From contig CM000151.3 in assembly GCA_000004695.1 (NCBI GenBank), positions 192,001-256,000 on the forward strand: 64,000 bases of DNA, written 5' to 3'. This DNA comes from Dictyostelium discoideum. Taxonomy: Eukaryota. Under the pieces are notes generated by a model that searched no databases, had not been told where the DNA came from, and was given only the letters and a program-made list of their open reading frames with translations. The position numbers were made by a program, and so were the translations under genes. Below, one piece after another: positions 49,165 to 64,000 of the stretch (within the stretch, counting starts at the first letter, position 1; every line of letters begins with the position of its first letter).

Positions 49165-51803
49165 ATGATATCAATGGACTCAACCCCAACATTGAATTTT
49201 GAAACATCAGGTAAATATTATTATTTATTATTATTATTTATTATTTATTATTTATTATTTATTATTTATTATTTAAAATAGTAATAACAAAACAATAATA
49301 ATAGTGATAATAAAAAAAAAAAAAATAAAAAAAAATAAAAAAAAATAAAAAAAAAATAATCTTTCGTTTCGTTTTTTTTTTTTTTTTTTTTTTTTTTTTG
49401 GTTGATTAAGTGAAAAAATAACAATAATAAAAAAATAAAAAAAATAAAAAATAAATAAATTAAATTATAAATTAAATTATTAATTAAAAAAATTTTTTTT
49501 TTTTTTTTTTTATTATATTAAAAAAAATAATAATAATAATAAAAAAAAAAGATAATCTGGATGGATTACCGGATGGATCAAATGCATTTAAAATAAATAT
49601 AGATGATTTGGAATTTGGACAAGAAATTGGTAAAGGTGCATATGGTAAAATTTTTAAAGGTGAATATTTTGGAACACCAGTTGCAATTAAAGAGATATCA
49701 TTACAACCAAACGATGTGAAATATAAAGATTTAACCAAATTTATACAGAGAGAAGTAGCAATGTTAAGATTTAGTCATCCAAATTTAGTTCAATTCATTG
49801 GAGTATCGGAAAGAGGATCCAGTCTATACATTGTTACAGAGTTTGTACAGGGTGGTGATTTAGCTTATTATTTATTTAGAAATAAATTTGATGACACTCC
49901 AGAACAGTATATACACAGAAAAGTGAATGTCGGAAGTAGCTCAACACCCGACCTATCGGACCCGACCGTTCACAACGGCGAGAAGTTGGTGCAGTTGGCA
50001 TGGCCGTTGCGTATAAAGATAGCCTATGACGTTGCCTGCGCAATGGCGTATCTCCACTCGAGGAATGTGATACACCGTGATTTGAAATCCACAAATTTAT
50101 TAGTTGGCGACAATTGGAGAATCAAAGTTTGTGATATGGGATTCGCCAGAACTGCACAGGTCGGCGGAGGGTCAAGAGCAAAGCGAACAATGACCATCTG
50201 CGGAACCACAAATTGCATGGCGCCAGAGGTCGTGCTCGGCCAAGATTATAATGAGGCGTGCGATGTCTTCTCCTATGGTATTGTGCTATCGGAGATTATC
50301 ACTCGTATGGATACAACAAATAATCTTAGACCTTCGTCTTTAAAGTACGGTTTGGATGTCGATGTCTTATTACCATTGGTTCCAAAAGATTGTCCACCAC
50401 CATTTTTAAAATTGGTTCTAGATTGCACTGAATATGATCCAGACAATAGACCTACCTTTAAAGAAATCACAGAACGTTTAAAAAGTTTAACTAAAAAATT
50501 ATCAACACCTCACATTTTACCACCTTTAAGAGTTTTAGCACAATCACCATTAACATCACCAATTCAATCACCAATTTCAACTAAAAATCAATTTAATCCA
50601 AATTTATTTAAATCAATTGTACATAATAATCATAATCATAGTAGTAGTAGTAATAATAGTAGCGGATATAATAATAATAGTAATCATAATATAAATATAA
50701 CAGTAAATAGCATAAATATAAATAGTAGTAATATAAATAATAATAATAATAATAATAATATAAATAATAATAATAATAATAATAATAATATTAGTTTTTC
50801 AGGAAGACAAGAAGAGTTAATGTCACCAATATCAATGGGAGATGAAAGTGATTTAGATTCCGATGATGAGGATGATTCTTATACTTCTTCAGCTTCTTCA
50901 AGTAGATGTAATTCAAGAAACGGTAAAATTATAAATGGAGGAAAACAAATGGGTTATATAATAAAACATCATTATAGTAGTGATTTGGAATCATCGCCTA
51001 ATGGTAATAATATTAATAACAACAACAATAACAATAATAACAACAACAACAACAACAACAATAATAATAATAATAATAATAATAGCGGCAATAATGGAAT
51101 TTGTATAAATAGTTTAAGTTTAGGAGTATCGTCATCACCAATTCAAATTGGATTATCATCAAAATCACCAACACCACCATCAATGTCACCACCAACTTCT
51201 GTAAAATCTTATCATCCAAATAATAATAATAATAATATCAATATCAACAACACCAACACCAACATCAACAATAATAAAATTTCATCATCACCACCAGTTA
51301 AAAATTCACCAAAATCAAATAGATTTTCAAATGGATCATTAAAACAACAATTTCAACAATATCAACAACAACAACAACAATTATTTTTAAATATTAATGA
51401 AGATGATAAAGAATTGGAGGAATTATCAAAATCAATTGATGATACTTTTAGATTACATTTTTCACCTTTAAATATTTCACCAACTCAAAATAATAATAAC
51501 AATAATAACAATAGCAATAATAACAATGGTAATGTTAATCATAATCATCATCATTTAAATCAACATAGTCATATTAATGGTCATTTAATATCACCAACAA
51601 TTATATCTTCATCATCAACAACTTCTTCATCAACTTCAACACCTTCTTTAGTTAGTTTAACTTCATCTAGGGATCACCATCATCATCACATATCTGTAAC
51701 CTCTTCTCCAACTAATATCAAACCATTATCTTCTTCAATTGCCTCAAATTCTTCAGTCTTCACTCCGTTAGGTAGTGGATTAACAAGAACTGTACAAAGT
51801 TAA
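49165..51803 (+). CDS. Protein kinase, TKL-like (tyrosine-kinase-like Ser/Thr family), with a long N/S/H-rich C-terminal tail; 2 exons (49165-49210, 49550-51803)
   Basis: Exon 1 reads MISMDSTPTLNFETS and ends at g|gtaaat. Exon 2 begins after aaaag and joins in phase. Kinase motifs include GKGAYGKIF, VAIKE, HRDLKSTNLLV, DMGFAR and CGTTNCMAPEV. The tail has poly-N, poly-H and S/T runs. The gene ends at TAA 51801-51803. Confidence 0.85.
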
Positions 51804-51818
51804 CTTCATGAAAAATAA

Positions 51819-51855
<37 letters not shown>

Positions 51856-52298
51856 CTATTTAAAAAAATTAATAATAAAAAAAAATAAAATAAAATAAAA
51901 AAAAAAAAAATAATAATAAAAAAATAAAATACAATGAAATAAAAACAAATATTTATTTATTTCAACATATAATATTTATTTATTTATTTTTACATTTTCT
52001 TTTTTTTTTTTTTTTACTTTATTTTTTTTTTTTTTTGTAATTATGATACCATTTCTTTAAAATTAAAAAATTATATCCCATTTACAATATTTTTAGAATA
52101 TTAAAAGACACACAAAATGACGATCATCACAAAATATTTTTTTTTTTTTTTTATTCCAAAACATAATTTTAAATTTCTTGTTTAATAAAGAAAAATTAGA
52201 ATTTATTATTATAATATTTTATATAATTATTTTATGGGGAAGAAAGAAATAAAAATTCGAAATCTTAATAGTATCTTCAGAAAATTATAAAAATTCAA

Positions 52299-52384
52299 TG
52301 AACCGATCACAATGATCATGAATTGATTTTTTTATTTTTTTTTATTTTTTTTATTTTTTTTTTTTTGAAAAAGCTAAAAATATC
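52299..52384. promoter_or_regulatory. Conserved upstream cassette of paralog A: GAACCGATCACAATGATCA ... GAAAAAGCTAAAAATATC(T)n
   Basis: The two blocks lie about 215 and 130 bp upstream of ATG 52515. The same blocks sit at the same spacing upstream of paralogs B and C. Confidence 0.5.
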
Positions 52385-52470
52385 TTTTTTTTTTTTTTTT
52401 TAAGTAAATAATAAATTTATTTATTTTTTTTATTATGATGGTCAAAAAAAAAAAAAAAAAACAATTGACA

Positions 52471-52505
<35 letters not shown>

Positions 52506-52514
52506 ATAATAAAA

Positions 52515-55500
52515 ATGAAAATAAAATTTATAAATTATTTATTATTATTTTTTATTATTTTTTTAAATTATAATGGATTTGTAAAATCAGATTGTTATCA
52601 AGAACTCGATTTGGTTTTATCTAATTCTTGTAGAAATGGCCCATCAAAATTAGTTATTCATGAAAGTATTTATTCTTTTGAAAGTATTGAATTGACTCCA
52701 TTTGTTCAACCAAAATTACTAAATTATTATTCTTGGGATTTACAAGATGGAATTAATTATTTCATAAGTTACAGATACAAGAATTGTAGTAATATAATTT
52801 CTAAACCATTTGCTTCAAAAGGAATGTATTATAAACTTTTAGCGGAACCATTATGTTTAAATACATATATTCCAGTTAGAGTTTATAATTGGGGTGCAGG
52901 TGGTATAGAATATAATTTTTATAGTGTTCCATCAACGATTTGGGTTAATTCACAAAATGGTTTATGTAGTTTCCAATCACCAATTTCTCCACAAAGTTAC
53001 ACAAAAGGTGTATTAAATGATGGTGCACTCAAATTCGTTGGACCAACATGTGGTTTTAAAAATGGTACGATTACAATTGATTTAACCAAAGGTTATTCAA
53101 ATTATCATTTATTCCTTCAATCAGATTACCTTTTTGATAATGAAATTCAACCATCTTCAGAAGGTTTTTACAATGGATTGGAATCTGAAAATTACTCCCT
53201 TTTCGTTGATTCTGAACAGTGTGCTACTGAAAGAATTGAAATTTACATGAAGGATGTTTTCGCTCCATTGGAAATTGATTTTGAGAATGTTCCAGACTTA
53301 TTCCATAATTCAACAATTTCACTATCATTATCAAGTGGTAATAATGGAATTTTAAATAACACAAATATAAATGCTTTTGTAATACAATCAGAACGTTTAC
53401 TTACAGATTGGAACCATGTCCAAACCCAAATTACTTCAAATACTTATTATGGGTACGCTTATAATAAAGACTTTTCAACGGAAGCAGGTCAGACAAAATG
53501 TGTATATTCTGAAACACTTTTATTTGATAATTATTCCCCAAATTTCAATTTCACAATTTCAAAAAGTGAAAGTTGTTTAGAAAATGTTTCAATTACATTC
53601 TATCCATTACCAAATCAAAATATTAAAGTTTATGATTATAGCTCAGAGTCTGGTATTCCATTCTCAATGAAGGATAACGTTTTATCAGTTGAAAATAATT
53701 TAAATTTATGGATTTTTGATACCAATCAAAATTATGGTATTGTTCATTCAACTGTTTTTGATATACCATCTTATAAAATTATTGAAACTTCAAATGGAAT
53801 TGGATGTTGGAAAACTTATAATATTACAATTGTAAATTATGAAAATTATAAAAATCTAAGAATTCATTTTTATAATGAAAATAGTGAATTTAATTTTTAT
53901 CCAGTAGAAGGTGTATTTATAAATGTACCTGCATTGTATTACTATGTTACTTATAATGCTGGTGATTGTGAAACTGAATCATACTTTGTAATTGATAAAC
54001 TTGATAGAAATACTCCAATGGATAATGTAGTTTTGGAATTCAACACATTGGAAATTGGTAATTGTACACATGAAACTTCATTCATGGTGACTGTGAAATC
54101 AGTATTCGGTAGCTATTCAAAAACTATGCAAACATTCTATGATAAAGAATTTACTATATTCCTTCCAAATTGTTCATGTCAGATTAATGGCATTTACGTA
54201 GCACCCCGCTTAATTGATGGTGATTCACTTATTTATGAATTATTAACAGATCCAAATTGTAATTCTACTGATACTTTAATTAGATTTACTTCTCCTTCCC
54301 AAGATTATTCAATATCATCTGTATATCAAAATGGTGTTCAATTGCAATATTATAACAATTTAAATGGTTATTATATTAGTTCAGGTGAAAATAATATTAC
54401 AGTTAATTATGAAGGTGATCAATATTGTTATAGAACTGAAACAATAACTATTCAATCAGTTTATGAAGTACCATTGGTCCAAATTACACCAGTTTCAGAT
54501 TGTAGAAATCCAAATGGAAAAATTGAAATTTCAAATTTCCAAATTTTCTATAACTTAGAGCTTGTATTTAATTCAAATAGTAAACCAATTAATCAAGGCT
54601 TTATTGAGAATCTTGCATCCGGTACATATACAATTAATTATTACAGCAATCAAACATGTATAAATTCTATCACTGTTTATGTACCATCTTCAGAAAATGT
54701 AGCAGAAATTACAACATCAGTAATTAGCAATCCAACTTGTGATAATGGTCCTTTCTCTGATGGTATGATCAGAGTAGCTCTTAAATATGAAGGTAATCAA
54801 ATTAATAATTTCACAATCCAAAATCAAGATGCAGAATTTACCTACCTTAATGATGGTGTTTACCCAATAGCAGGTGTTGGTGTAAATAGTTTAACAATTT
54901 CATATCTTTCTTGTATATGGAAAAGAGATATTACAACAGTACTCAATAAGCCAAGCTTTACTCTGGAAAAAGTTTTTAATGATACTTGTGATCTACAAAG
55001 TGTTTATAAATTAGTATCAAGTAATCCAAATATTGAAATCGATTATATTGATTCATCAAATGGCTTTTCTTACCTAAATAACTATTATCTAGTATTTCAA
55101 AATAGTGGCGATTTTGGTTATTATGTGGCTTGGAATTCACGTTGCTATGAATATTACACTCAACAAATTATAATGGATAATTATGATAGGGATAGTAATG
55201 TTAAATATATAGATTATGAAATTGTAAAACCAGATAATTGTAATTCATTAAAAATCGATTTAATCATTACAAATATGAACAAATTCATTAGTTTAACCAT
55301 TGAAAATAAACTTCCAACACCAATTAATTCGACCCATTCAATTTTCAAAAATTTACCACCATCAAAAAGTTATGACATTTTATACACATTATTAAATGGT
55401 TGTGTCGCGTATCAAACTGTTGGTATAGATGAATTCAAATCTGGTTTTACTAAAGAAACAATAGATATCATTAAAACAAGTGATATTTGTTACTCTGGTA

Positions 55501-56096
55501 AAGCTTCAATACAATTATCAAATTTGGATTTTGATAATTATTATTATTATATTAAAAATTCAAATAGTTTAATGGGAGTTACTGATTCATACGATTCAAT
55601 TCAACCACAGCAAAGTGGTAATATTAATGGTACAATTTTACTTTCAAATTATAATCCTGGTAGTTATAAAATTTATCGTGGTTGTAAATCAATGGCAAAC
55701 TGTTATTTAGAAACAAATGTTGTTATTGAAAGTGAAGATCCAATAATTGAATCAATTTCAGTTACTGATTCATATGATAAATTAAATAATGGCACTGTTG
55801 AAATTAAATTGAATTATAATTCACCATATCCAATTAATTTTAAAATCATTGGTACTCAATTATCAAATCAAAATGGTAAATTTGGAAATTTAACACCAAA
55901 AACATACGAAGTTCAAGTTACATTAACTGATAGAATGTGTCCAGTCACTTTATCAAAATCATTTACAATTAATTTAAAAACATCACCACCAACACCATCA
56001 CCACAAGATCCATCTGATGAACTTTCAACATCCTCATTTGTTCAAGTAAATCTTTTATTCTTATCAATCTTAATTTTCACTATTTTTATTTTTTAA
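52515..56096 (+). CDS. Large secreted surface protein of about 1193 aa, Cys-patterned, N-glycosylation-rich, putatively GPI-anchored; family unassigned; paralog A
   Basis: The gene is a single exon. A signal peptide MKIKFINYLLLFFIIFLNYNGFVKS opens it. More than 60 NxS/T sequons are present. A Cys-NG-x-I module recurs, for example GPTCGFKNGTITIDLT, VSDCRNPNGKIEISNF, SNPTCDNGPFSDGMIRV and SDICYSGKASIQLSNL. The C-terminus SPPTPSPQDPSDELSTSS plus the hydrophobic tail FVQVNLLFLSILIFTIFIF looks like a GPI-attachment signal. Confidence 0.8.
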   Translation: MKIKFINYLLLFFIIFLNYNGFVKSDCYQELDLVLSNSCRNGPSKLVIHESIYSFESIELTPFVQPKLLNYYSWDLQDGINYFISYRYKNCSNIISKPFASKGMYYKLLAEPLCLNTYIPVRVYNWGAGGIEYNFYSVPSTIWVNSQNGLCSFQSPISPQSYTKGVLNDGALKFVGPTCGFKNGTITIDLTKGYSNYHLFLQSDYLFDNEIQPSSEGFYNGLESENYSLFVDSEQCATERIEIYMKDVFAPLEIDFENVPDLFHNSTISLSLSSGNNGILNNTNINAFVIQSERLLTDWNHVQTQITSNTYYGYAYNKDFSTEAGQTKCVYSETLLFDNYSPNFNFTISKSESCLENVSITFYPLPNQNIKVYDYSSESGIPFSMKDNVLSVENNLNLWIFDTNQNYGIVHSTVFDIPSYKIIETSNGIGCWKTYNITIVNYENYKNLRIHFYNENSEFNFYPVEGVFINVPALYYYVTYNAGDCETESYFVIDKLDRNTPMDNVVLEFNTLEIGNCTHETSFMVTVKSVFGSYSKTMQTFYDKEFTIFLPNCSCQINGIYVAPRLIDGDSLIYELLTDPNCNSTDTLIRFTSPSQDYSISSVYQNGVQLQYYNNLNGYYISSGENNITVNYEGDQYCYRTETITIQSVYEVPLVQITPVSDCRNPNGKIEISNFQIFYNLELVFNSNSKPINQGFIENLASGTYTINYYSNQTCINSITVYVPSSENVAEITTSVISNPTCDNGPFSDGMIRVALKYEGNQINNFTIQNQDAEFTYLNDGVYPIAGVGVNSLTISYLSCIWKRDITTVLNKPSFTLEKVFNDTCDLQSVYKLVSSNPNIEIDYIDSSNGFSYLNNYYLVFQNSGDFGYYVAWNSRCYEYYTQQIIMDNYDRDSNVKYIDYEIVKPDNCNSLKIDLIITNMNKFISLTIENKLPTPINSTHSIFKNLPPSKSYDILYTLLNGCVAYQTVGIDEFKSGFTKETIDIIKTSDICYSGKASIQLSNLDFDNYYYYIKNSNSLMGVTDSYDSIQPQQSGNINGTILLSNYNPGSYKIYRGCKSMANCYLETNVVIESEDPIIESISVTDSYDKLNNGTVEIKLNYNSPYPINFKIIGTQLSNQNGKFGNLTPKTYEVQVTLTDRMCPVTLSKSFTINLKTSPPTPSPQDPSDELSTSSFVQVNLLFLSILIFTIFIF

Positions 56097-56199
56097 ACTT
56101 AGAAAAAATATAAAATACAAATAAAAAATAATGATTCAAGTGTTTGCAAGGAGTTTTCTTATTTTTTTTCTTTGTAGTTTATTCTGTGATTATGTATGG

Positions 56200-56233
<34 letters not shown>

Positions 56234-56362
56234 AGGATGATTTCCTTTTTTTTTTTTTTTTTTTTTGTAAATTGGTATTTTATTTATAAAATAGAATTTT
56301 TTATTATGATAATCAATTAAATTATTTTATGGGCAAGAAAAACAAATTAAAAAAAATTCACT

Positions 56363-56425
56363 GAACCGATCACAATGATCACAACCGTTTTTTTTTTTTT
56401 TTTTTTTCGAAAAGCTAAAAATATC
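56363..56425. promoter_or_regulatory. Conserved upstream cassette of paralog B
   Basis: CTGAACCGATCACAATGATCA ... CGAAAAGCTAAAAATATC(T)n, with the same spacing as in paralog A. Confidence 0.5.
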
Positions 56426-56589
56426 TTTTTTTTTTTTAATTTAATTTAATTTTATTTTATTTTATTTTATTTTATTTTTTTTTTTTTTTCAAACCAATCA
56501 AAAAAAAAAAAAAAAAAAAAAAAAACCTTAAAATAATTTTTTTTTTTTTTTTATAAAAAATTTTTAATAATAATATTAATAATAAAAAG

Positions 56590-59500
56590 GAAAATAAAAT
56601 TTATAAATTATTAATTATTATTTTTTATTATTTTTTTAAATAAAAATAATTTTGTAAAATCAGATTGTGATCAAGAACTCGATTTGGTATTATATAATTC
56701 TTGTGGAAATAGCCCATCAAAATTAGTTATTCATGAAAATATTTATTCTTTTGAAAGTATTGAATTGACTCCATTTGTTCAACCAAAATTACTAAATTAT
56801 TATTCTTGGGATTTACAAGATGGAATTAATTATTTCATAAGTTACAGATACAAGAATTGTAGTAATATAATTTCTAAACCATTTGCTTCAAAAGGAATGT
56901 ATTATAAACTTTTAGCGGAACCATTATGTTTAAATACATATACTCCAATTATAGTTTATAATTGGGCTGCAGATGCTTCACCCTATAGTTTTTATAGTGT
57001 TCCATCAACAATTTGGGTTTATTCACAAAATGGTAATTGTAATTTCCAATCACCAATTTCTCCACAAAGCTACACAAAAGGTGTATTAAATGATGGTGCA
57101 CTCAAATTCGTTGGACCAACATGTGGTTTTAAAAATGGTACGATTACAATTGATTTAACCAAAGGTTATTCAAATTATCATTTATTCCTTCAATCAGATT
57201 ACCTTTTTGATAATGAAATTCAACCATCTTCAGAAGGTTTTTACAATGGATTGGAATCTGAAAATTACTTCCTTTTCGTTGATTCTGAACAGTGTGCTAC
57301 TGAAAGAATTAAAATTTACTTGAAAGATGTTTTCGCTCCATTGGAAATTGATTTTGAGAATGTTCCAGATTTATTCCATAATTCAACAATTTCATTATCA
57401 TTATCAAGTGGTAATAATGGAATTTTAAATAACACAAATTCAAATGCATTTGTTGGAAATACACAGCGTTTACTTGCAGATTGGAACCATGCACAAACCC
57501 CAATTATATCAAGAACTGTTTATGGGTATACTTATAATAAAGACTTTTCAACAGAGGTTGGCCAGTTACAATGTAATTTTTTCGAAACACTTTCATTTGA
57601 TAATTATTCCCCAAATTTCAATTTCACAATTTCAAAAAGTGAAAGTTGTTTAGAAAATGTTTCAATTACATTCTATCCATTACCAAATCAAAATATTAAA
57701 GTTTATGATTATAGCTCAGAGTCTGGTATTCCATTCTCAATGAAGGATAACGTTTTATCAGTTAATAATAATTTAAATTTATGGATTTTTGATACCAATC
57801 AAGGGTATGGTATTGTTCATTCAACTGTTTTTGATATACCATCTTACAAAATTATCGAAACTTCAAATGGAATTGGATGTTGGAAAACTTATAATATTAC
57901 TATTGTAAATTATGAAAATTATAAAAATCTAAGAATTCATTCATATAATGAAAATAGTGAATTTAATTTTTATCCAGTAGAAGGTGTATTTATAAATGTA
58001 CCTGCATTGTATTACTATGTTACTTATAATGCTGGTGATTGTGAAACTGAATCATTCTTTGTAATCGATAAACTTGATATAAATACTCCAATGGATGGTG
58101 TGACTGTTGAATACACTACATTGAAAGTTGGTAATTGTACACATGAAACTTCATTCATGGTGACTGTGAAATCAGTATTCGGTAGCTATTCAAAAACTAT
58201 GCAAACATTCTATGATAAAGAATTTACTATATTCCTTCCAAATTGTTCATGTCAGATTAATGGCATTTACGAAGCACCCGGCTTAATTGATGGTGATTCA
58301 CTTATTTATGAACTTTTAACAGATCCAAATTGTAATTCCACTGGCACTTTAATTAGATTTACTTCTCCTTCCCAAGATTATTCAATATCATCTGTATATC
58401 AAAATGGTGTTCAATTGCAATATTATAACAATTTAAATGGTTATTATATTAGTTCAGGTGAAAATAATATTACAGTTAATTATGAAGGTGATCAATATTG
58501 TTATAGAACTGAAACAATAACTATTCAATCAGTTTATGAAGTACCATTGGTCCAAATTACACCAGTTTCAGATTGTAGAAATCCAAATGGAAAAATTGAA
58601 ATTTCAAATTTCCAAATTTTCTATAACTTAGAGCTTGTATTTAATTCAAATAGTAAACCAATTAATCAAGGCTTTATTGAGAATCTTGCATCCGGTACAT
58701 ATACAATTAATTATTACAGCAATCAAACATGTATAAATTCTATCACTGTTTATGTACCATCTTCAGAAAATGTAGCAGAAATTACAACATCAGTAATTAG
58801 CAATCCAACTTGTGATAATGGTCCTTTCTCTGATGGTATGATCAGAGTAGCTCTTAAATATGAAGGTAATCAAATTAATAATTTCACAATCCAAAATCAA
58901 GATGCAGAATTTACCTACCTTAATGATGGTGTTTACCCAATAGCAGGTGTTGGTGTAAATAGTTTAACAATTTCATATCTTTCTTGTATATGGAAAAGAG
59001 ATATTACAACAGTACTCAATAAGCCAAGCTTTACTCTTGAAAAAGTTTTTAATGATACTTGTTCACTACCAAATGTTTATAAATTAGTATCAAGTAATCC
59101 AAATATTGAAATCGATTATATTGATTCACCAAATAACTTTTTTTATCAAAATAACTATTATCTAGTATTTCAAAATGTTGGTAATTCTAGTTATCAAGTG
59201 GGCTGGAATTCACGTTGTGAAGAACATTACTATCAACAAATAATAATGGATAATTATGATAAAAATAGTAATGTTAAATATATAGATTATGAAATTGTAA
59301 AATCAGATAATTGTAACTCATTAAAAATTGATTTAATCATTACAAATATGAACAAATTCGTTAGTTTAAATATTGAAAATAAACTTCCAACACCAATTAA
59401 TTCGACCCATTCAATTTTCAAAAATTTACCACCATCAAAAAGTTATGACATTTTATACACATTACTAAATGGTTGTGCAGGGTATCAAACTGTAGGTGAA

Positions 59501-60181
59501 GATGAACTCAAATCTGGTTTTACTAAAGAAACAATGGATATCATAAAAATAAATGATCTTTGTTACTCTGGTAAAGCTTCAATACAATTATCAAATTTGG
59601 ATTTTGATAATTATTATTATTATATTAAAAATTCAAATAGTTTAATGGGAGTTTCTGATTCATTTGACCCAATTCAACCACAACAAATTAGTAGTAATGG
59701 TACTATTTTACTTTCAAATTATAATCCTGGTAGTTATAAAATTTATCGTGGTTGTAAGTCAATGGCAAACTGTTATTTAGAAACAAATGTTGTTATTGAA
59801 AGTGAAGATCCAATAATTGAATCAATTTCAGTTACTGATTCATATGATAAATTAAATAATGGTACTGTTGAAATTAAATTAAATTATAATTCATCAAATC
59901 CAATTAATTTTAAAATCATTGGTACTCAATTATCAAATCAAAATGGTAAATTTGGAAATTTAACACCAAAAACATACGAAGTTCAAGTTACATTAACTGA
60001 TAGAATGTGTCCAATCACTCTATCAAAATCATTTACAATTAATTTAAAAACATCACCAACACCATCACCAACCCCATCACCACAAGATCCATCTGATGAA
60101 CTTTCAACATCATCATTTGTTCAAGTTAATCTATTATTCTTATCAATCTTAATTTTCACTATTTTTATTTTTTTAATTTAA
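56590..60181 (+). CDS. Paralog B of the surface-protein family; a 1165-aa body ORF about 93-95% identical to A, but the start codon is lost and the signal peptide has a stop, so it may be a very recent pseudogene
   Basis: At the position homologous to ATG of A, B reads AGG (aaaaaggaaaataaaattt versus aaaaatgaaaataaaattt). Codon 9, TTA in A, is TAA in B (aattattaattatta). Downstream of that the frame is open to 60181, with the same C-terminal GPI-like tail. Confidence 0.6.
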
Positions 60182-60336
60182 AATAATTAAAAATTCCAAA
60201 GTTTTTTCAATATTTATATATATACTTTTCCCTTTAATGTTTATTTTTAAAAAATTGTTTTAGTGGAGGAAATGGGAAAGGATTTTAAAAAAGTATATTT
60301 TTTTTTATAATTGACTGGAAGATGATAAAGTCTTTT

Positions 60337-60372
<36 letters not shown>

Positions 60373-60590
60373 TAATTGTTCGTTTTATTTGTTTATATAT
60401 TTACATGTTTATTTATTAATTTTTTTTTTTTTTGTGTAAATTACAAAGTATCCCAAGAAATCAAAGTAAAAAAATCAAATCATTGAAACCCTATTCGTTA
60501 TGAAATGATTGCAATCTCCTTTTTTTTTTAAAATAAAAAAAAAAATTAAAAAAATTAAAAAAAATTCAAATAACCAATCTGATTGATTTC

Positions 60591-60648
60591 TTTACCGATC
60601 CCCCAAAAAATTAATTTTTTTTTTAATTTTTCAAAAACTAAAAATATC
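60591..60648. promoter_or_regulatory. Conserved upstream cassette of paralog C
   Basis: TTACCGATCCCCCAAAAAA ... CAAAAACTAAAAATATC(T)n lies about 115-170 bp upstream of ATG 60762. Confidence 0.45.
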
Positions 60649-60761
60649 TTTTTTTTTTATTTTTAATTTTTTTTTTTTTTTTTTATTTTAACCTTTTTTT
60701 TTTTTTTTTTTTTTTTTATTTTAACAAAAAAAAATAATATTAAATCTAAAACAATAAGGAA

Positions 60762-63700
60762 ATGAAATTTATAAAATATTTATTAATTTTATTTTTAATA
60801 TTAAAAATTAATTATTTTGTAGAATCAGGAGTAGATTGTCAAAAAAATACAGAGTATTTCGTTGAAAATTCATGTGGCAAAAATCCATCAAAATTAAACA
60901 TCAACACTGATATTTACTATTTTGAAAGTATTGGAATAACACCATATTCCCCACCTGTTTATAATGAATCTACAACTAATTACTTTTGGTATTTGAAGGA
61001 TGGTATTGAATATACATTTAGTTATAGATACAAAGGTTGTCAAAATATTAAATCACATTCAATTGTTTCACAAGGAATGTATTACCAACTTTTATCACAA
61101 CCATTGTGTCCAAATACCTATTTCAATTATACAATTTATAATTCAGGAGAGTTTGGTGGAAATACAAATTATTACTCTACCCCACAAAATATTATAAGTT
61201 CAAATTATAATGGTAGTTGTACTATTAATATTTTAATTACACCACTTAGTAATTCCAAAGGTGCATTCCAAAGCAGTGCTGCTAAATACACCTATCCAAC
61301 TTGTGGTTTTAATAATGGTACGATTTCAGTTGATTTAACAAAAGGTTATTCAAATTGTCACTTATTCAGCCAATTTGACACGAGTTTTCTATATGAAATT
61401 GAACCATCATCGCCATGTTTTTACAGTGGGTTGGAGTCAAATTATTATTACCTTTTCGTTGATTCTAAAGAATGTGCTACTGAAAGATTATCAATTCAAT
61501 TATTCAATGTTTTCACTCCATTGGAAATTACTTTTGAAAATGTTCCAGATTATAATCAAAATTCAATAGTATCATTATCATTATCAAGTGGTGACAATGG
61601 AATTTTAAATAAAACTAATTCATTTGCAACTGTGGGTGGCACTGGACCTGATCCATTAAGTACTTGGAGCCATAAAGAAACTAAAATTACTTCAACCACA
61701 CAATTTGGTTACTTTTATAATAAAGACTTTTCAACAGATCCATTAAAAGTTATATGTTCTTTTAATGATGGTTTTGAACCGCAAAAATTTAATCCAAATT
61801 TTAATTTCACAGTTACAAAAAGTGATACTTGTTTAGAAAATGTAACTATTACATTTTATCCATTACCAAGTCAAACATTTGTTGTTCATGATTATATTTT
61901 AGGAAATATATTACCATTGACAAATAATGTTCTATCGGTTCAATATAATAAATTTTTACATATTTCAGAGATTTCAAGTAATTCAGAAAGATATTATTCA
62001 ACAGCTTTTTATGCTCCTATTTATAGAGTTGTTGAAACTTCAAATGGAATTGGTTGTTGGAAAACCTATAATATTACAATTGGTGAATATCAAATTTATT
62101 CAAATCTTACAATGAAAGTATATGATGGAGATGAATATGAATATATTTTTTATCCAATTGAAGGAGTTTTCGTTAATGTACCTGCAAATTATTTTTATAT
62201 CCATTATAAAGTTAAAGATTGTGAAGTTGAATCAATAATTATGATTGATAAATATGAAGAAATTACTCCAATGGATGATGTAAAAATGGATATCAGTATA
62301 TATGAACTTGGTAATTGTACACATGAAACTTCAATTTTAGTAAATATCGATACAGTTTTTGGTAACTTTTCTAAAGTTTATTCATCATTTTCAAATGGTT
62401 ATTTCTCTTTTTACCTTCCAAATTGTTCCTGTAATATTGGTTTCTACTATTCTATTCCACCATTAATCGATAGTGAAACATTTTCTTATGGTTTTATCAG
62501 TGATCTAGATTGTAATTCCACTGGTACTGTTATTCAATTATTAGGTTCAAATGGTAATACTATTCAAGAAGTTTATTCAAATGGTATTAAATTAATAGTA
62601 AATAATGACGTTGATACTGATTTTGCATATAATATTGGGCCTGGTGAAAATAATGTTACAATTAAATATTCAAATACAAAAGGAACTTGTTACAAATCTC
62701 AAATGATTAACATACAATCACCTTATGAAGTACCATTAGTTGAAGTCACACCAGTTATAGATTGTGATAGTTCTGATGGTAAAATTTCAATTTCAAATTA
62801 TATGAACTTCTATTCATTGGATATTATTATTGATTCATCCACTATACCAATTAATTCAGGTTTAGTTAGTAATCTTCCAACTGGTACTTACACAATTGTT
62901 TATGGAAACAGTGGATCTTGTGCAAATTCTATCGATGTTTATGTACCATCTTCAGAACAGTATGTAGAAATTACAACATCTGTAATTTCCCATCCAACTT
63001 GTGGTGAACAATCATTGAATGGTGATGGTAAAGTCAATGTAACTTTAAAGGTTTTAGGAATTAAAAAAAATACATTCTATATTCAAAATCAAAATCAAAT
63101 ATCATCTCTAACATTCTCAGATGGTGGTGTTTATATTGCTGCTGCTCCAGGTTTAAATACTTTATCAATATCCTATGGTGGTTGTATTTGGAATAGAGAT
63201 GTTAATACAACAATTTCCAAACCAACATTCTCATTTGAAAAGATTTACAATGACACTTGTTTATCATCAGTATATTATAAATTAATAAATAATAATACAA
63301 ATATAGCAATTAATTCCATCACTTCACCTTATACCTTATATAGTTACCAAAATGAATACTACACTCAAATGGCCACAAATTTAATCTATCCATACACTGT
63401 CACATGGAATACCTATTGCACAGAAACATTTTACCAAGAATTTACTTTTGACACTCCTTTTAATTATTATTCAAATTATATCCAATATGAAATTGTAAAA
63501 GCTGATAATTGTAATTCATTCAAAATTGATATCATCATTAAAAATATGAATACTTTTCAAAAGGTAACCCTTTCAAGTAAATATCCAACACCAATTAATT
63601 CGACTCATGCAATTTTTAAAAATTTACCACCATCTATTTCTTATGATATTTCATTCACATTATTTGATGGTTGCTCTGGTACTGAAATGGTTGGTTATCA

Positions 63701-64000
63701 ACAACTTTCAAATGGTAATACTAAAGAGACAATCGATATCATCAAGGTGAACGACATTTGTAACTCTGGTAAAGGTTCTATCCAATTATCAAATATGGAT
63801 ACCTCCAATCATTATTACTATGTTAAAACATTTTCAGATTATTACGTTTACACAAGTTACCCAATTCAACCAACTACTAATGATAATGGTACAATTATTA
63901 GTCTACTTTCAAATTTACCAGTTGGTAGTTACAATATAACTAGAAATTGTAAATCAATAACAAACTGTTATATAGAAACAAAGGTTGTTATTGAAAATAA
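60762..64000 (+). CDS. Paralog C of the surface-protein family, divergent (about 50% aa identity to A); partial, running off the window end
   Basis: Translation from ATG 60762 stays open to 64000. It begins MKFIKYLLILFLILKINYFVESGVDCQKNTEYFVENSCGKNPSKLNINTDIYYFESIGITPY... and shows the same module order as A, for example PTCGFNNGTISVDLTKGYSNCHLF, SNGIGCWKTYNITI, ELGNCTHETS, LPNCSCNIG, VIDCDSSDGKISISNY and SHPTCGEQSLNGDGKVNV. Confidence 0.75.
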   Translation, partial: MKFIKYLLILFLILKINYFVESGVDCQKNTEYFVENSCGKNPSKLNINTDIYYFESIGITPYSPPVYNESTTNYFWYLKDGIEYTFSYRYKGCQNIKSHSIVSQGMYYQLLSQPLCPNTYFNYTIYNSGEFGGNTNYYSTPQNIISSNYNGSCTINILITPLSNSKGAFQSSAAKYTYPTCGFNNGTISVDLTKGYSNCHLFSQFDTSFLYEIEPSSPCFYSGLESNYYYLFVDSKECATERLSIQLFNVFTPLEITFENVPDYNQNSIVSLSLSSGDNGILNKTNSFATVGGTGPDPLSTWSHKETKITSTTQFGYFYNKDFSTDPLKVICSFNDGFEPQKFNPNFNFTVTKSDTCLENVTITFYPLPSQTFVVHDYILGNILPLTNNVLSVQYNKFLHISEISSNSERYYSTAFYAPIYRVVETSNGIGCWKTYNITIGEYQIYSNLTMKVYDGDEYEYIFYPIEGVFVNVPANYFYIHYKVKDCEVESIIMIDKYEEITPMDDVKMDISIYELGNCTHETSILVNIDTVFGNFSKVYSSFSNGYFSFYLPNCSCNIGFYYSIPPLIDSETFSYGFISDLDCNSTGTVIQLLGSNGNTIQEVYSNGIKLIVNNDVDTDFAYNIGPGENNVTIKYSNTKGTCYKSQMINIQSPYEVPLVEVTPVIDCDSSDGKISISNYMNFYSLDIIIDSSTIPINSGLVSNLPTGTYTIVYGNSGSCANSIDVYVPSSEQYVEITTSVISHPTCGEQSLNGDGKVNVTLKVLGIKKNTFYIQNQNQISSLTFSDGGVYIAAAPGLNTLSISYGGCIWNRDVNTTISKPTFSFEKIYNDTCLSSVYYKLINNNTNIAINSITSPYTLYSYQNEYYTQMATNLIYPYTVTWNTYCTETFYQEFTFDTPFNYYSNYIQYEIVKADNCNSFKIDIIIKNMNTFQKVTLSSKYPTPINSTHAIFKNLPPSISYDISFTLFDGCSGTEMVGYQQLSNGNTKETIDIIKVNDICNSGKGSIQLSNMDTSNHYYYVKTFSDYYVYTSYPIQPTTNDNGTIISLLSNLPVGSYNITRNCKSITNCYIETKVVIEN

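Follow-up and report, generated by a model that had tools for sequence, protein, structure and literature searches.

A tandemly duplicated Dictyostelium discoideum gene encodes a putative cell-surface protein of twelve domains related to the bacterial SprB-type repeat

The SprB repeat (PF13573) forms long arrays in proteins of Bacteroidota that are cargo of the type IX secretion system (T9SS), among them SprB of Flavobacterium johnsoniae, which was reportedly described as a surface adhesin by Nelson and co-workers in 2008. Giant relatives carrying repeats of this type are also recorded under the names 'gliding motility-associated C-terminal domain' or 'T9SS type A or B sorting domain-containing', and their consensus is characterized by a GG-x-x-PY-x-Y-x-W motif. 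Similar adhesins contain two other immunoglobulin-like (Ig-like) domains of about 80 amino acids (aa), HYR (PF02494) and Ig_7 (PF19081; 'Ig-like domain CHU_C associated'). Aureispira has a grappling-hook protein, GhpA (PDB 9flp, 9fly, 9g8b and further entries), which is a T9SS-secreted protein of Bacteroidota with 52 Ig-like repeats and was compared with SprB by its authors; in its electron cryomicroscopy structure disulfides join neighbouring Ig-like domains, for example C2988-C3140, 152 aa apart (bioRxiv 10.1101/2024.01.29.577165). Here we analyzed 64,000 nucleotides (nt) of Dictyostelium discoideum DNA (GenBank assembly GCA_000004695.1, contig CM000151.3, positions 192,001 to 256,000 of the forward strand; this whole stretch is called the window, and positions are counted from its first letter), and in it the gene DDB_G0271238, whose product is built from divergent repeats of the SprB type. 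Surface proteins with Ig-like domains, some of them anchored by glycosylphosphatidylinositol (GPI), are known in Dictyostelium, such as csA/gp80 and TgrB1/TgrC1 (IPT/TIG domains), and the Cna_B domain of its colossin-type proteins was reportedly listed by Eichinger and co-workers in 2005 as a candidate for horizontal transfer.

In the list of open reading frames (ORFs), the one at 52515-56096 (+) is a single uninterrupted exon of 1193 aa plus stop, and its translation is 100% identical to DDB_G0271238 of D. discoideum AX4 (XP_645713.1, Q55B99), a 'hypothetical protein' on the 8.48-Mb chromosome 2 record. Scans of the whole protein with Pfam and NCBIfam and against PDB sequences gave no significant match. 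A first-pass annotation of this DNA had noted between 52600 and 56000 a short Cys-containing module, recurring 15-20 times at irregular spacing, that resembled bacterial SprB-type repeats. The recurrence is real, and its form turned out to be different: a domain of ~72-100 aa recurs 12 times head to tail with regular spacing over residues 170-1155. Pairs of Cys ~52-58 residues apart are repeated every 72-100 residues, and on the basis of this period the protein was cut into an N-terminal region (aa 25-169) and modules M1-M12 (aa 170-1155). All six peptides that had been given as examples were located (residues 177, 661, 740, 990, 1085 and 1139, starting at nt 53043, 54495, 54732, 55482, 55767 and 55929, all within 52600-56000), and they are two distinct elements of one domain, namely an element around the first Cys (PTCGFKNGTITI, SDCRNPNGKIEI, PTCDNG..SDGMIRV, DICYSGKASIQL and the Cys-less DSYDKLNNGTVEI) and a last-strand element that follows the second Cys (DRMCPVTLSKSFTINL). 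The motif C-x(1-4)-N-G-x-I-x-I occurs twice in the protein against 0.004 expected (two copies were reached in 0/1000 shuffles), its core [NDS]-G-x-[ILV]-x-[ILV] five times against 0.8 expected from shuffles, and a very loose pattern, Cys plus an alternating hydrophobic strand within 10 residues, 21 times against 11.7 +/- 2.3 (1/1000 shuffles).

The modules are related to each other, with a mutual identity of 15-28% within one Dictyostelium protein. When module families from 16 homologues were compared with hhalign, the alignments were all in register (M4-M7 95%, M7-M12 83%, M7-M11 75%, M1-M7 73% and M6-M8 65%). Furthermore, in a leave-one-module-out analysis with hidden Markov models (HMMs), M1, M4, M6, M7, M8, M10, M11 and M12 reached medians of 8-30 bits versus a shuffle 95th percentile of ~3-6, M5 and M9 were borderline, and M2 and M3 were undetectable by sequence. 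The AlphaFold2 (AF2) model of the whole protein, built from a 16-sequence alignment (mean predicted local distance difference test, pLDDT, 70), is all-beta and has ~7 strands in each of the 12 modules.

To look for relatives, a profile of 48 Dictyostelium module sequences (A2, 86 positions) was run with HMMER against 1.84 billion (1.84e9) representative proteins, which gave 7512 matches at E<=1e-3 and 654 at E<=1e-30; details of these matches are drawn from the best 150 of the 7512. The best ones, which outrank the Dictyostelium family itself, are 2,000-7,500 aa long and contain 20-60 matched stretches each, and all those with a name are from Bacteroidota (Saprospiraceae, Salegentibacter, Rufibacter, Solitalea, Zunongwangia and Flavivirga), recorded as 'T9SS type A sorting domain-containing' in Saprospiraceae and as 'HYR domain-containing' in Salegentibacter and Zunongwangia. 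The profile search and the look beyond social amoebae that had been proposed, along with a structure prediction, in the first-pass annotation led to giant T9SS proteins, and the likeness to SprB-type repeats on which it had remarked is borne out. Indeed, a T9SS sorting domain (TIGR04183 or TIGR04131) lies at the C-terminus of 10/10 sampled bacterial matches, and PF13573 was the top Pfam family in four of six sampled bacterial proteins (16 stretches, E 1e-104, in P0061) and in five of the seven bacterial repeat fragments that best match the Dictyostelium profile. With a bias of ~0, these alignments stay in register for ~70-75 residues and keep the order and spacing of the first Cys, [ND]-G-x-I-x-I, F-x-N-L-x-x-G-x-Y-x-[IV] and the second Cys. 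The best single-domain score was 36.6 bits (A2 positions 7-82 of 86; independent E-value 3.6e-11 among 148 sequences), equivalent to ~E 4e-4 when rescaled arithmetically to 1.84e9 proteins.

The reverse search, with an HMM of the bacterial repeats, gave E-values of 1e-11 to 5e-26 for 13/15 matched Dictyostelium members (4.5e-6 and 4.7e-4 for the others) and best single-domain E-values of 1e-7 to 4e-10 in 13/15 (~5e-4 in the other two), and matched 0/336 shuffled or reversed, composition-matched decoys. These single-domain matches are reciprocal, in register and decoy-free, and therefore the similarity is more than a sum of weak repeat scores. M12 (33.9 bits), M7 (29.5) and M1 (26.7) were the strongest modules in this search, M10, M8 and M6 were weaker and in register, and M1 and M12 score higher with the bacterial-repeat HMM than with the other Dictyostelium modules. 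Profile-profile comparison of the Dictyostelium and bacterial repeats with hhalign, in which both Cys are aligned, gave 97.5% (E 5e-12, 72 columns), and 97.3% (E 2e-11, 75 columns) when 42 bacterial repeats were independently aligned. Additionally, BLAST of M1, M6, M7 or M12 against individual bacterial repeats showed 34-40% identity over 62-79 residues, and a tandem period of ~80 aa is common to both sides (12 modules of 72-100 aa in Dictyostelium; 81 aa in bacterial P0061). Bona fide bacterial repeats scored in isolation reach 20.9-35.3 bits with Pfam SprB, often below the family's gathering score of 28 bits too, and SprB is, among all Pfam families, the one matched by most isolated Dictyostelium modules. 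Some of the best-matching bacterial repeats, for example those of Salegentibacter P0042, are also without GG..PY.Y.W, and it is this bacterial subtype that the Dictyostelium module resembles. From its sequence we take the module to be homologous to the SprB-type repeat, as a divergent form that lies below Pfam's own membership threshold. A word-indexed search with the module alignment found nothing, which reflects its sensitivity limit, since the exhaustive HMM search found thousands.

Modeled alone (AF2, 48-sequence module alignment), M7 is a clean 7-strand sandwich like those of Ig and fibronectin type III (FN3) domains, with a pLDDT of 93.8. The first-pass annotation would have taken the resemblance to bacterial repeats as coincidence if no profile matched and the predicted fold was unrelated; the profile matches described above were obtained, and the predicted fold is a beta-sandwich. 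In a Foldseek search with the whole-protein model the best solved structure was GhpA (E 1.7e-17), and further long Ig/FN3 arrays ranked behind it. At the level of PDB sequences A2 gave two insignificant matches only, and the bacterial SprB-type profile matched RemZ (chain 8gl8_D, residues 497-568, E 4e-4) and, weakly, GhpA (E 3e-3).

The models also bear on the Cys. The first Cys of a module (C1) falls at the C-terminal pole, within the loop that joins strands 1 and 2, and the second (C2) at the N-terminal pole, immediately ahead of strand 7, so that the two would be too far apart for a bond within the domain and C1(n) should instead face C2(n+1). An intradomain C1-C2 disulfide, which was our first assumption, was rejected on this strand topology together with the lack of coupling between C1(n) and C2(n) in the bacterial repeats (phi 0.02). 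In those repeats the two Cys, at columns 21 and 73 of an 89-column model, are 97-98% conserved, and across ~4,000 pairs of successive repeats in 148 proteins C1(n) and C2(n+1) covary (phi 0.68, p 1e-47): both are present in 3975 pairs, one only in 11+12, and neither in 25 (in 12 proteins). This covariation points to inter-domain disulfide stapling along SprB-type arrays. In the Dictyostelium protein both Cys are present in 9/12 modules, and the exceptions, M2 without C1, M3 without C2 and M12 without C1, fit the C1(n)-C2(n+1) rule, while the five Cys of the N-terminal domain leave one free for C236. In the homologue P0013, C825 and C963 are lost jointly. The predicted pairs lie 121-154 aa apart. 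Taken together, the models and the covariation predict that consecutive domains are stapled by C1(n)-C2(n+1) disulfides. M11, with two invariant Cys at the second position, is an exception to the rule.

Along the protein the modules are arranged as follows, all on the forward strand (+). M1 (aa 170-247; 53022..53255) has C179 and C236, scores 17.9 bits in the leave-one-out analysis and is 36.7% identical to a bacterial repeat over 79 aa; its Pfam SprB score is 12.2 bits, and that of its D. firmibasis orthologue 18.6 bits. M2 (aa 248-341; 53256..53537) and M3 (aa 342-420; 53538..53774) are degenerate: M2 has lost the first Cys and kept C329, being recognized by position, Cys pattern and all-beta AF2 model, and M3 has kept C354 and lost the second Cys, with an all-beta model and a weak in-register HMM match (independent E-value 0.09). 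A DUF7947 match at residues 358-395 (E 0.1; 0.0098 with isolated M3) was dismissed as noise. M4 (aa 421-497; 53775..54005; C431 and C485; leave-one-out 23.5 bits) is the module most clearly linked to M7 by hhalign, and the divergent M5 (aa 498-569; 54006..54221; C517 and C553/C555) is supported by AF2 strands and a leave-one-out score of 7.4 versus 5.8 for the shuffle 95th percentile. M6 (aa 570-650; 54222..54464; C582 and C638; leave-one-out 15.7 bits, hhalign link to M8) is 34% identical to a bacterial repeat over 77 aa. The best-preserved module is M7 (aa 651-727; 54465..54695; C663 and C715; leave-one-out 29.7 bits), followed by M8 (aa 728-812; 54696..54950; C742 and C800), which contains PTCDNGPFSDGMIRV and scores 14.5 bits in the leave-one-out analysis and 8.8, in register, with the bacterial HMM. 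M9 (aa 813-890; 54951..55184; C825 and C877) is divergent (leave-one-out 11.3 bits versus a shuffle maximum of 9.7), and although it was outside the training set the core HMM found it in register (independent E-value 5e-4). M10 (aa 891-975; 55185..55439; C909 and C963) scores 20.2 bits in the leave-one-out analysis and 12.5 with the bacterial HMM. M11 (aa 976-1075; 55440..55739; C992 and C1057/C1063) has an insertion, with a leave-one-out family median of 12.8 bits and the hhalign link to M7. The last repeat, M12 (aa 1076-1155; 55740..55979), has lost the first Cys and kept C1142; it has the protein's highest score with the bacterial HMM, a leave-one-out score of 19.0 and 40% identity to a bacterial repeat over 62 aa.

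Ahead of the repeats, an all-beta domain (aa 25-169; 52587..53021, +; ~12 strands in AF2, pLDDT 70-82) is a candidate for a distal 'head'. It differs from the repeats and has five invariant Cys (27, 39, 91, 114 and 151). The Pfam scan of this domain gave no match, profile-profile comparison gave no link to any of M1-M12, and Pfam together with word-indexed profile searches detected no relatives beyond the Dictyostelium family, so that it appears family-specific. The protein begins with a signal-peptide-like stretch read from the sequence, MKIKFINYLLLFFIIFLNYNGFVKS (aa 1-24; 52515..52586, +; a low-confidence helix at 3-19 in AF2), and ends with a Pro/Ser/Thr-rich stalk, TSPPTPSPQDPSDELSTSS, and a terminal hydrophobic segment, FVQVNLLFLSILIFTIFIF, which resemble a GPI-attachment signal (55980..56093, +). 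No cytoplasmic residues follow this segment, and AF2 has 1157-1180 disordered and 1181-1192 helical. These ends fit the 'ectodomain' of which the first-pass annotation had spoken. N, S, I and Y are abundant in the protein, which has 28 Cys and 20 N-x-S/T sequons and is probably secreted to the cell surface, putatively GPI-anchored and heavily N-glycosylated. Neither TIGR04183 nor TIGR04131, the T9SS C-terminal sorting domains, was found in it (0 NCBIfam families).

DDB_G0271238 (gene 1) is followed by two tandem paralogues. Gene 2 (56588..60181, +) is 91% identical to it in aa and 94.5% in nt (tblastn and nucleotide alignment; module HMM E 2e-100). At its start (56588-56614) AGG stands for ATG, and TAA for TTA at codon 9 (56612-56614), with ~1165 further codons open; it shares 98.9% identity with UPI00004E5177, an older gene model that spliced in an upstream exon. 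Gene 2 may be a very recent pseudogene, or may use another start. The identity between genes 1 and 2 is a mosaic, being 100% over ~600 nt (~54315-54914 versus ~58390-58990; M6-M8) and 83-85% in two 150-nt patches near 53415-53565 (M2) and 55065-55215 (M9), which suggests gene conversion between the tandem copies. The third gene, DDB_G0271234 or 'Protein dduB' (Q55B97; 60762..64000, +, running off the window end), is ~50% identical to gene 1 (tblastn; module HMM E 3e-53) and 100% identical to the protein P0172 over 1079 aa; 'ddu' may stand for dedifferentiation-up-regulated, as reportedly used by Katoh and co-workers in 2004. A fourth, more distant paralogue, DDB_G0271482, lies elsewhere on the chromosome, and a six-frame HMM scan of the 64-kb window found the module in no other ORF. 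Two word-indexed searches of 5.8e9 proteins, with a single sequence and with a 16-sequence profile, recovered the full-length family only from D. discoideum, D. cf. discoideum, D. citrinum, D. dimigraforme and D. firmibasis (16 proteins). Its members are usually linked and multi-copy, with orthologues in four or five Dictyostelium species.

A second assembly labelled D. discoideum, GCA_054859385.1, is colinear with AX4 at the locus (window 50999-63998 versus L001 47-13240); it differs by 4-11% nt throughout, the 3' end of the flanking kinase being 93-96% identical, and represents a notably divergent lineage. Exceptional within-species polymorphism of the repeat genes, as in the tgr kin-recognition genes, was considered and ruled out by this locus-wide divergence, the kinase included. 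The tgr family serves kin recognition in Dictyostelium, and in the same assembly a tgr-family gene (Ig_TgrO1/TIG; L001 18010-20633, -) lies ~4.4 kb downstream of the dduB orthologue; in AX4 a tgr-like gene would fall just past the window end. Upstream of DDB_G0271238, the unrelated ORF at 49608-51803 (+) encodes a protein-kinase-like domain, after which come long low-complexity tracts, poly-Asn and Ser-rich, of a kind typical of Dictyostelium.

We consider it likely, with fair confidence, that DDB_G0271238 consists of a beta-head of ~145 aa and twelve ~80-aa, 7-strand SprB-type domains forming a stapled adhesin or recognition rod of Bacteroidota origin, a proposal in which the tandem arrangement of the repeats, their homology to the bacterial ones and the modeled beta-sandwich are the parts supported directly by the results. 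The disulfide staples between consecutive domains would yield a stiff rod of ~45-50 nm holding the N-terminal head away from the membrane, and by analogy with the bacterial proteins its likely role would be surface adhesion or recognition, directed at bacterial prey, at other cells or at the substrate. Most likely, a stretch of a Bacteroidota adhesin gene was captured by an ancestor of the D. discoideum species group and would then have gained eukaryotic targeting signals and shifted in composition towards the AT-rich genome; the repeats would have diverged from one another and the gene been duplicated in tandem, to give the three copies of the window and DDB_G0271482. A bacterial origin is favoured because the distribution is huge in bacteria versus very narrow in eukaryotes, and because modules are nearer to the bacterial consensus than to each other. 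More tentatively, it is conceivable, if somewhat short of probable, that a prey-derived fragment of a T9SS gliding adhesin was domesticated into the GPI-anchored rods of DDB_G0271238, its neighbour, dduB and DDB_G0271482, with the bacterial disulfide 'zipper' kept for amoebal adhesion or recognition, possibly of bacteria.

Several results weigh against this proposal. Pfam's gathering score of 28 bits for PF13573 is not reached, the whole protein giving no SprB match at E<=10; isolated modules match the family in 3/48 cases, at best with 18.6 bits and E 0.0014 (D. firmibasis M1), and the GG-x-x-P-Y-x-[YF]-x-W/S-I-D-G-G motif is not in the Dictyostelium module consensus. The bacterial repeats of the reciprocal HMM were gathered with the Dictyostelium profile, which makes that comparison partly circular. 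Four of the 12 modules (M2, M3, M5 and M9) are un- or barely recognizable by sequence, and fold searches with the module returned a generic 'Ig/FN3-like sandwich' that does not discriminate SprB from other families. As for the staples, P0013 is without C555 yet retains its predicted partner C431, and the total of invariant Cys is odd (27). Surface localization, GPI anchoring and adhesion are predictions, and our literature search for DDB_G0271238, DDB_G0271482 and dduB found no experimental or expression data. Bacterial ancestry is likely yet unproven.

Among the matches listed, the homologues outside Dictyostelium are all bacterial, as would be expected if the locus were bacterial contamination or an assembly artefact. 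This explanation is effectively refuted: the window is AT-rich (GC 15-30%), DDB_G0271238 has ~22-27% GC, similar to adjacent coding regions (23-27% GC like its neighbours in the comparison made for this point), and it is flanked by Dictyostelium-type poly(A)/poly(T) intergenic DNA; its N/I/Y-rich composition differs from the T/G/S/A-rich one of the bacterial matches, its N-terminus resembles a eukaryotic signal peptide and its tail is GPI-like, the independent strain assembly shows a colinear locus, and orthologues occur in the assemblies of five species. Convergence or chance, by which any disulfide-containing beta-sandwich repeat would match and summed weak scores would inflate the E-values, could draw on the modest single-domain scores (15-37 bits, the huge E-values being sums over 20-60 non-independent repeats), on the sub-threshold Pfam SprB scores and on the generic fold matches. 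We nevertheless regard pure convergence as very unlikely. The best single domain remains at ~E 4e-4 after rescaling, the alignments hold register across ~75/86 positions, two Cys and three motifs keeping their order and spacing, the reciprocal single-domain matches were free of decoys, and the inter-repeat Cys covariation rule is common to both sides. Moreover, the matches are SprB-type T9SS proteins and not the far commoner PKD, cadherin, Big or FN3 arrays.

Homology could also hold with no recent transfer, the repeats belonging to an old, vertically inherited Ig-like family or to a much earlier acquisition that seems restricted through fast evolution and limited searches. The low identity of modules within the protein would then reflect a divergence that was either long or fast, the targeting signals are wholly eukaryotic, as is the base composition, and two subfamilies with 34-37% mutual identity coexist in several species. 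In addition, eukaryotic carriers were judged from the best 150 of 7512 matches and others may exist; in this regard, 'SprB' stands among the domain abbreviations listed in a paper on amoebozoan G-protein-coupled receptors (PMC10445921), a list which suggests that at least one such receptor carries the Pfam SprB domain and that there could be other amoebozoan carriers. We find this ancient origin rather improbable, because the word-indexed searches recovered the full-length family from five Dictyostelium taxa only, a eukaryote-like composition occurs in those best 150 matches only in the Dictyostelium family, M1 and M12 score better with the bacterial-repeat HMM than with their sister modules, and the repeat is spread over Bacteroidota lineages (Flavobacteriales genera, Rufibacter, Solitalea and Saprospiraceae). 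A different objection accepts the architecture and disputes the role: the protein could be a structural part of the spore coat, the slime sheath or the extracellular matrix, could act as receptor for a soluble signal, or could protect the cell within its glycocalyx. No functional data were found in the literature, the name dduB of the paralogue would be a label for regulation rather than for adhesion, and tandem Ig-like rods have many roles, the Foldseek list for the whole-protein model also including surface-layer (S-layer) proteins, nucleoporin gp210 and receptor ectodomains. Such a role is possible, if on the unlikely side, given that the characterized bacterial proteins with this repeat, SprB and GhpA, are surface adhesins or prey-catching filaments, and that a membrane-tethered rod with a distinct distal head would be the standard layout of an adhesin.

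With these results a previously unannotated Dictyostelium family, including the named and uncharacterized dduB, receives a domain assignment and a structural model that can be tested. They extend the SprB-type repeat, among the matches listed a cargo module of the Bacteroidota T9SS, to a eukaryote, in which it is combined with a GPI-like tail and a new head and is free of a T9SS signal. If the bacterial origin is true, this would be a clear example of a phagotrophic amoeba re-using an adhesin module from bacteria of the kind it eats. Furthermore, the C1(n)-C2(n+1) rule may account for the stiffness of such long arrays on the bacterial and the amoebal side alike, in agreement with the GhpA cryomicroscopy.

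Compared with the known surface proteins of its own genus, DDB_G0271238 belongs to a repeat family different from that of csA/gp80, TgrB1/TgrC1 and the colossins, and TIG and Ig_TgrO1 gave no significant match in the protein (one module, E 0.16). With Cna_B in the colossin-type proteins, the Dictyostelium genome offers a precedent for domains of bacterial adhesins. Among bacterial domains, HYR is close by name, since two of the best-matching bacterial proteins are called 'HYR domain-containing' by NCBI, and Ig_7 occurs in one match; when Pfam families are ranked by their matches to the 48 Dictyostelium modules, the top 25 include neither, and SprB stands first. By sequence, RemZ of Flavobacterium (8gl8_D, residues 497-568) is the nearest of the solved chains that contain the repeat, and it had no match at E<=10 to the Dictyostelium profile directly. 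GhpA likewise had no sequence match to the Dictyostelium profile in the PDB search, and it differs in its 52 repeats, heptameric state and outer-membrane anchoring via T9SS; what it shares is the predicted design, an Ig-like rod rigidified by disulfides between neighbouring domains (Cys ~150 aa apart), glycosylated and with a distinct N-terminal binding head.

The closest system by sequence is the SprB array of Bacteroidota T9SS cargo proteins such as F. johnsoniae SprB. DDB_G0271238 is unlike these arrays in scoring below the Pfam gathering threshold, in the missing GG..PY.Y.W and in having 12 repeats only, which are far more divergent from each other; it also has a eukaryotic host, a signal peptide and GPI-like tail in place of the T9SS sorting domain, and a family-specific head. 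It is like them in the ~80-aa tandem period and, as predicted, the 7-strand sandwich, in a first Cys followed by [ND]-G-x-I-x-[IV], then L-x-x-G-x-Y-x-[IV]-x-[IV] and a second Cys ~53 aa on, in the 97% hhalign match and in the common C1(n)-C2(n+1) covariation. DDB_G0271238 thus compares as a eukaryotic, GPI-type protein of divergent SprB-type repeats that has no T9SS signal, for which a transfer from bacteria to amoebae is plausible.

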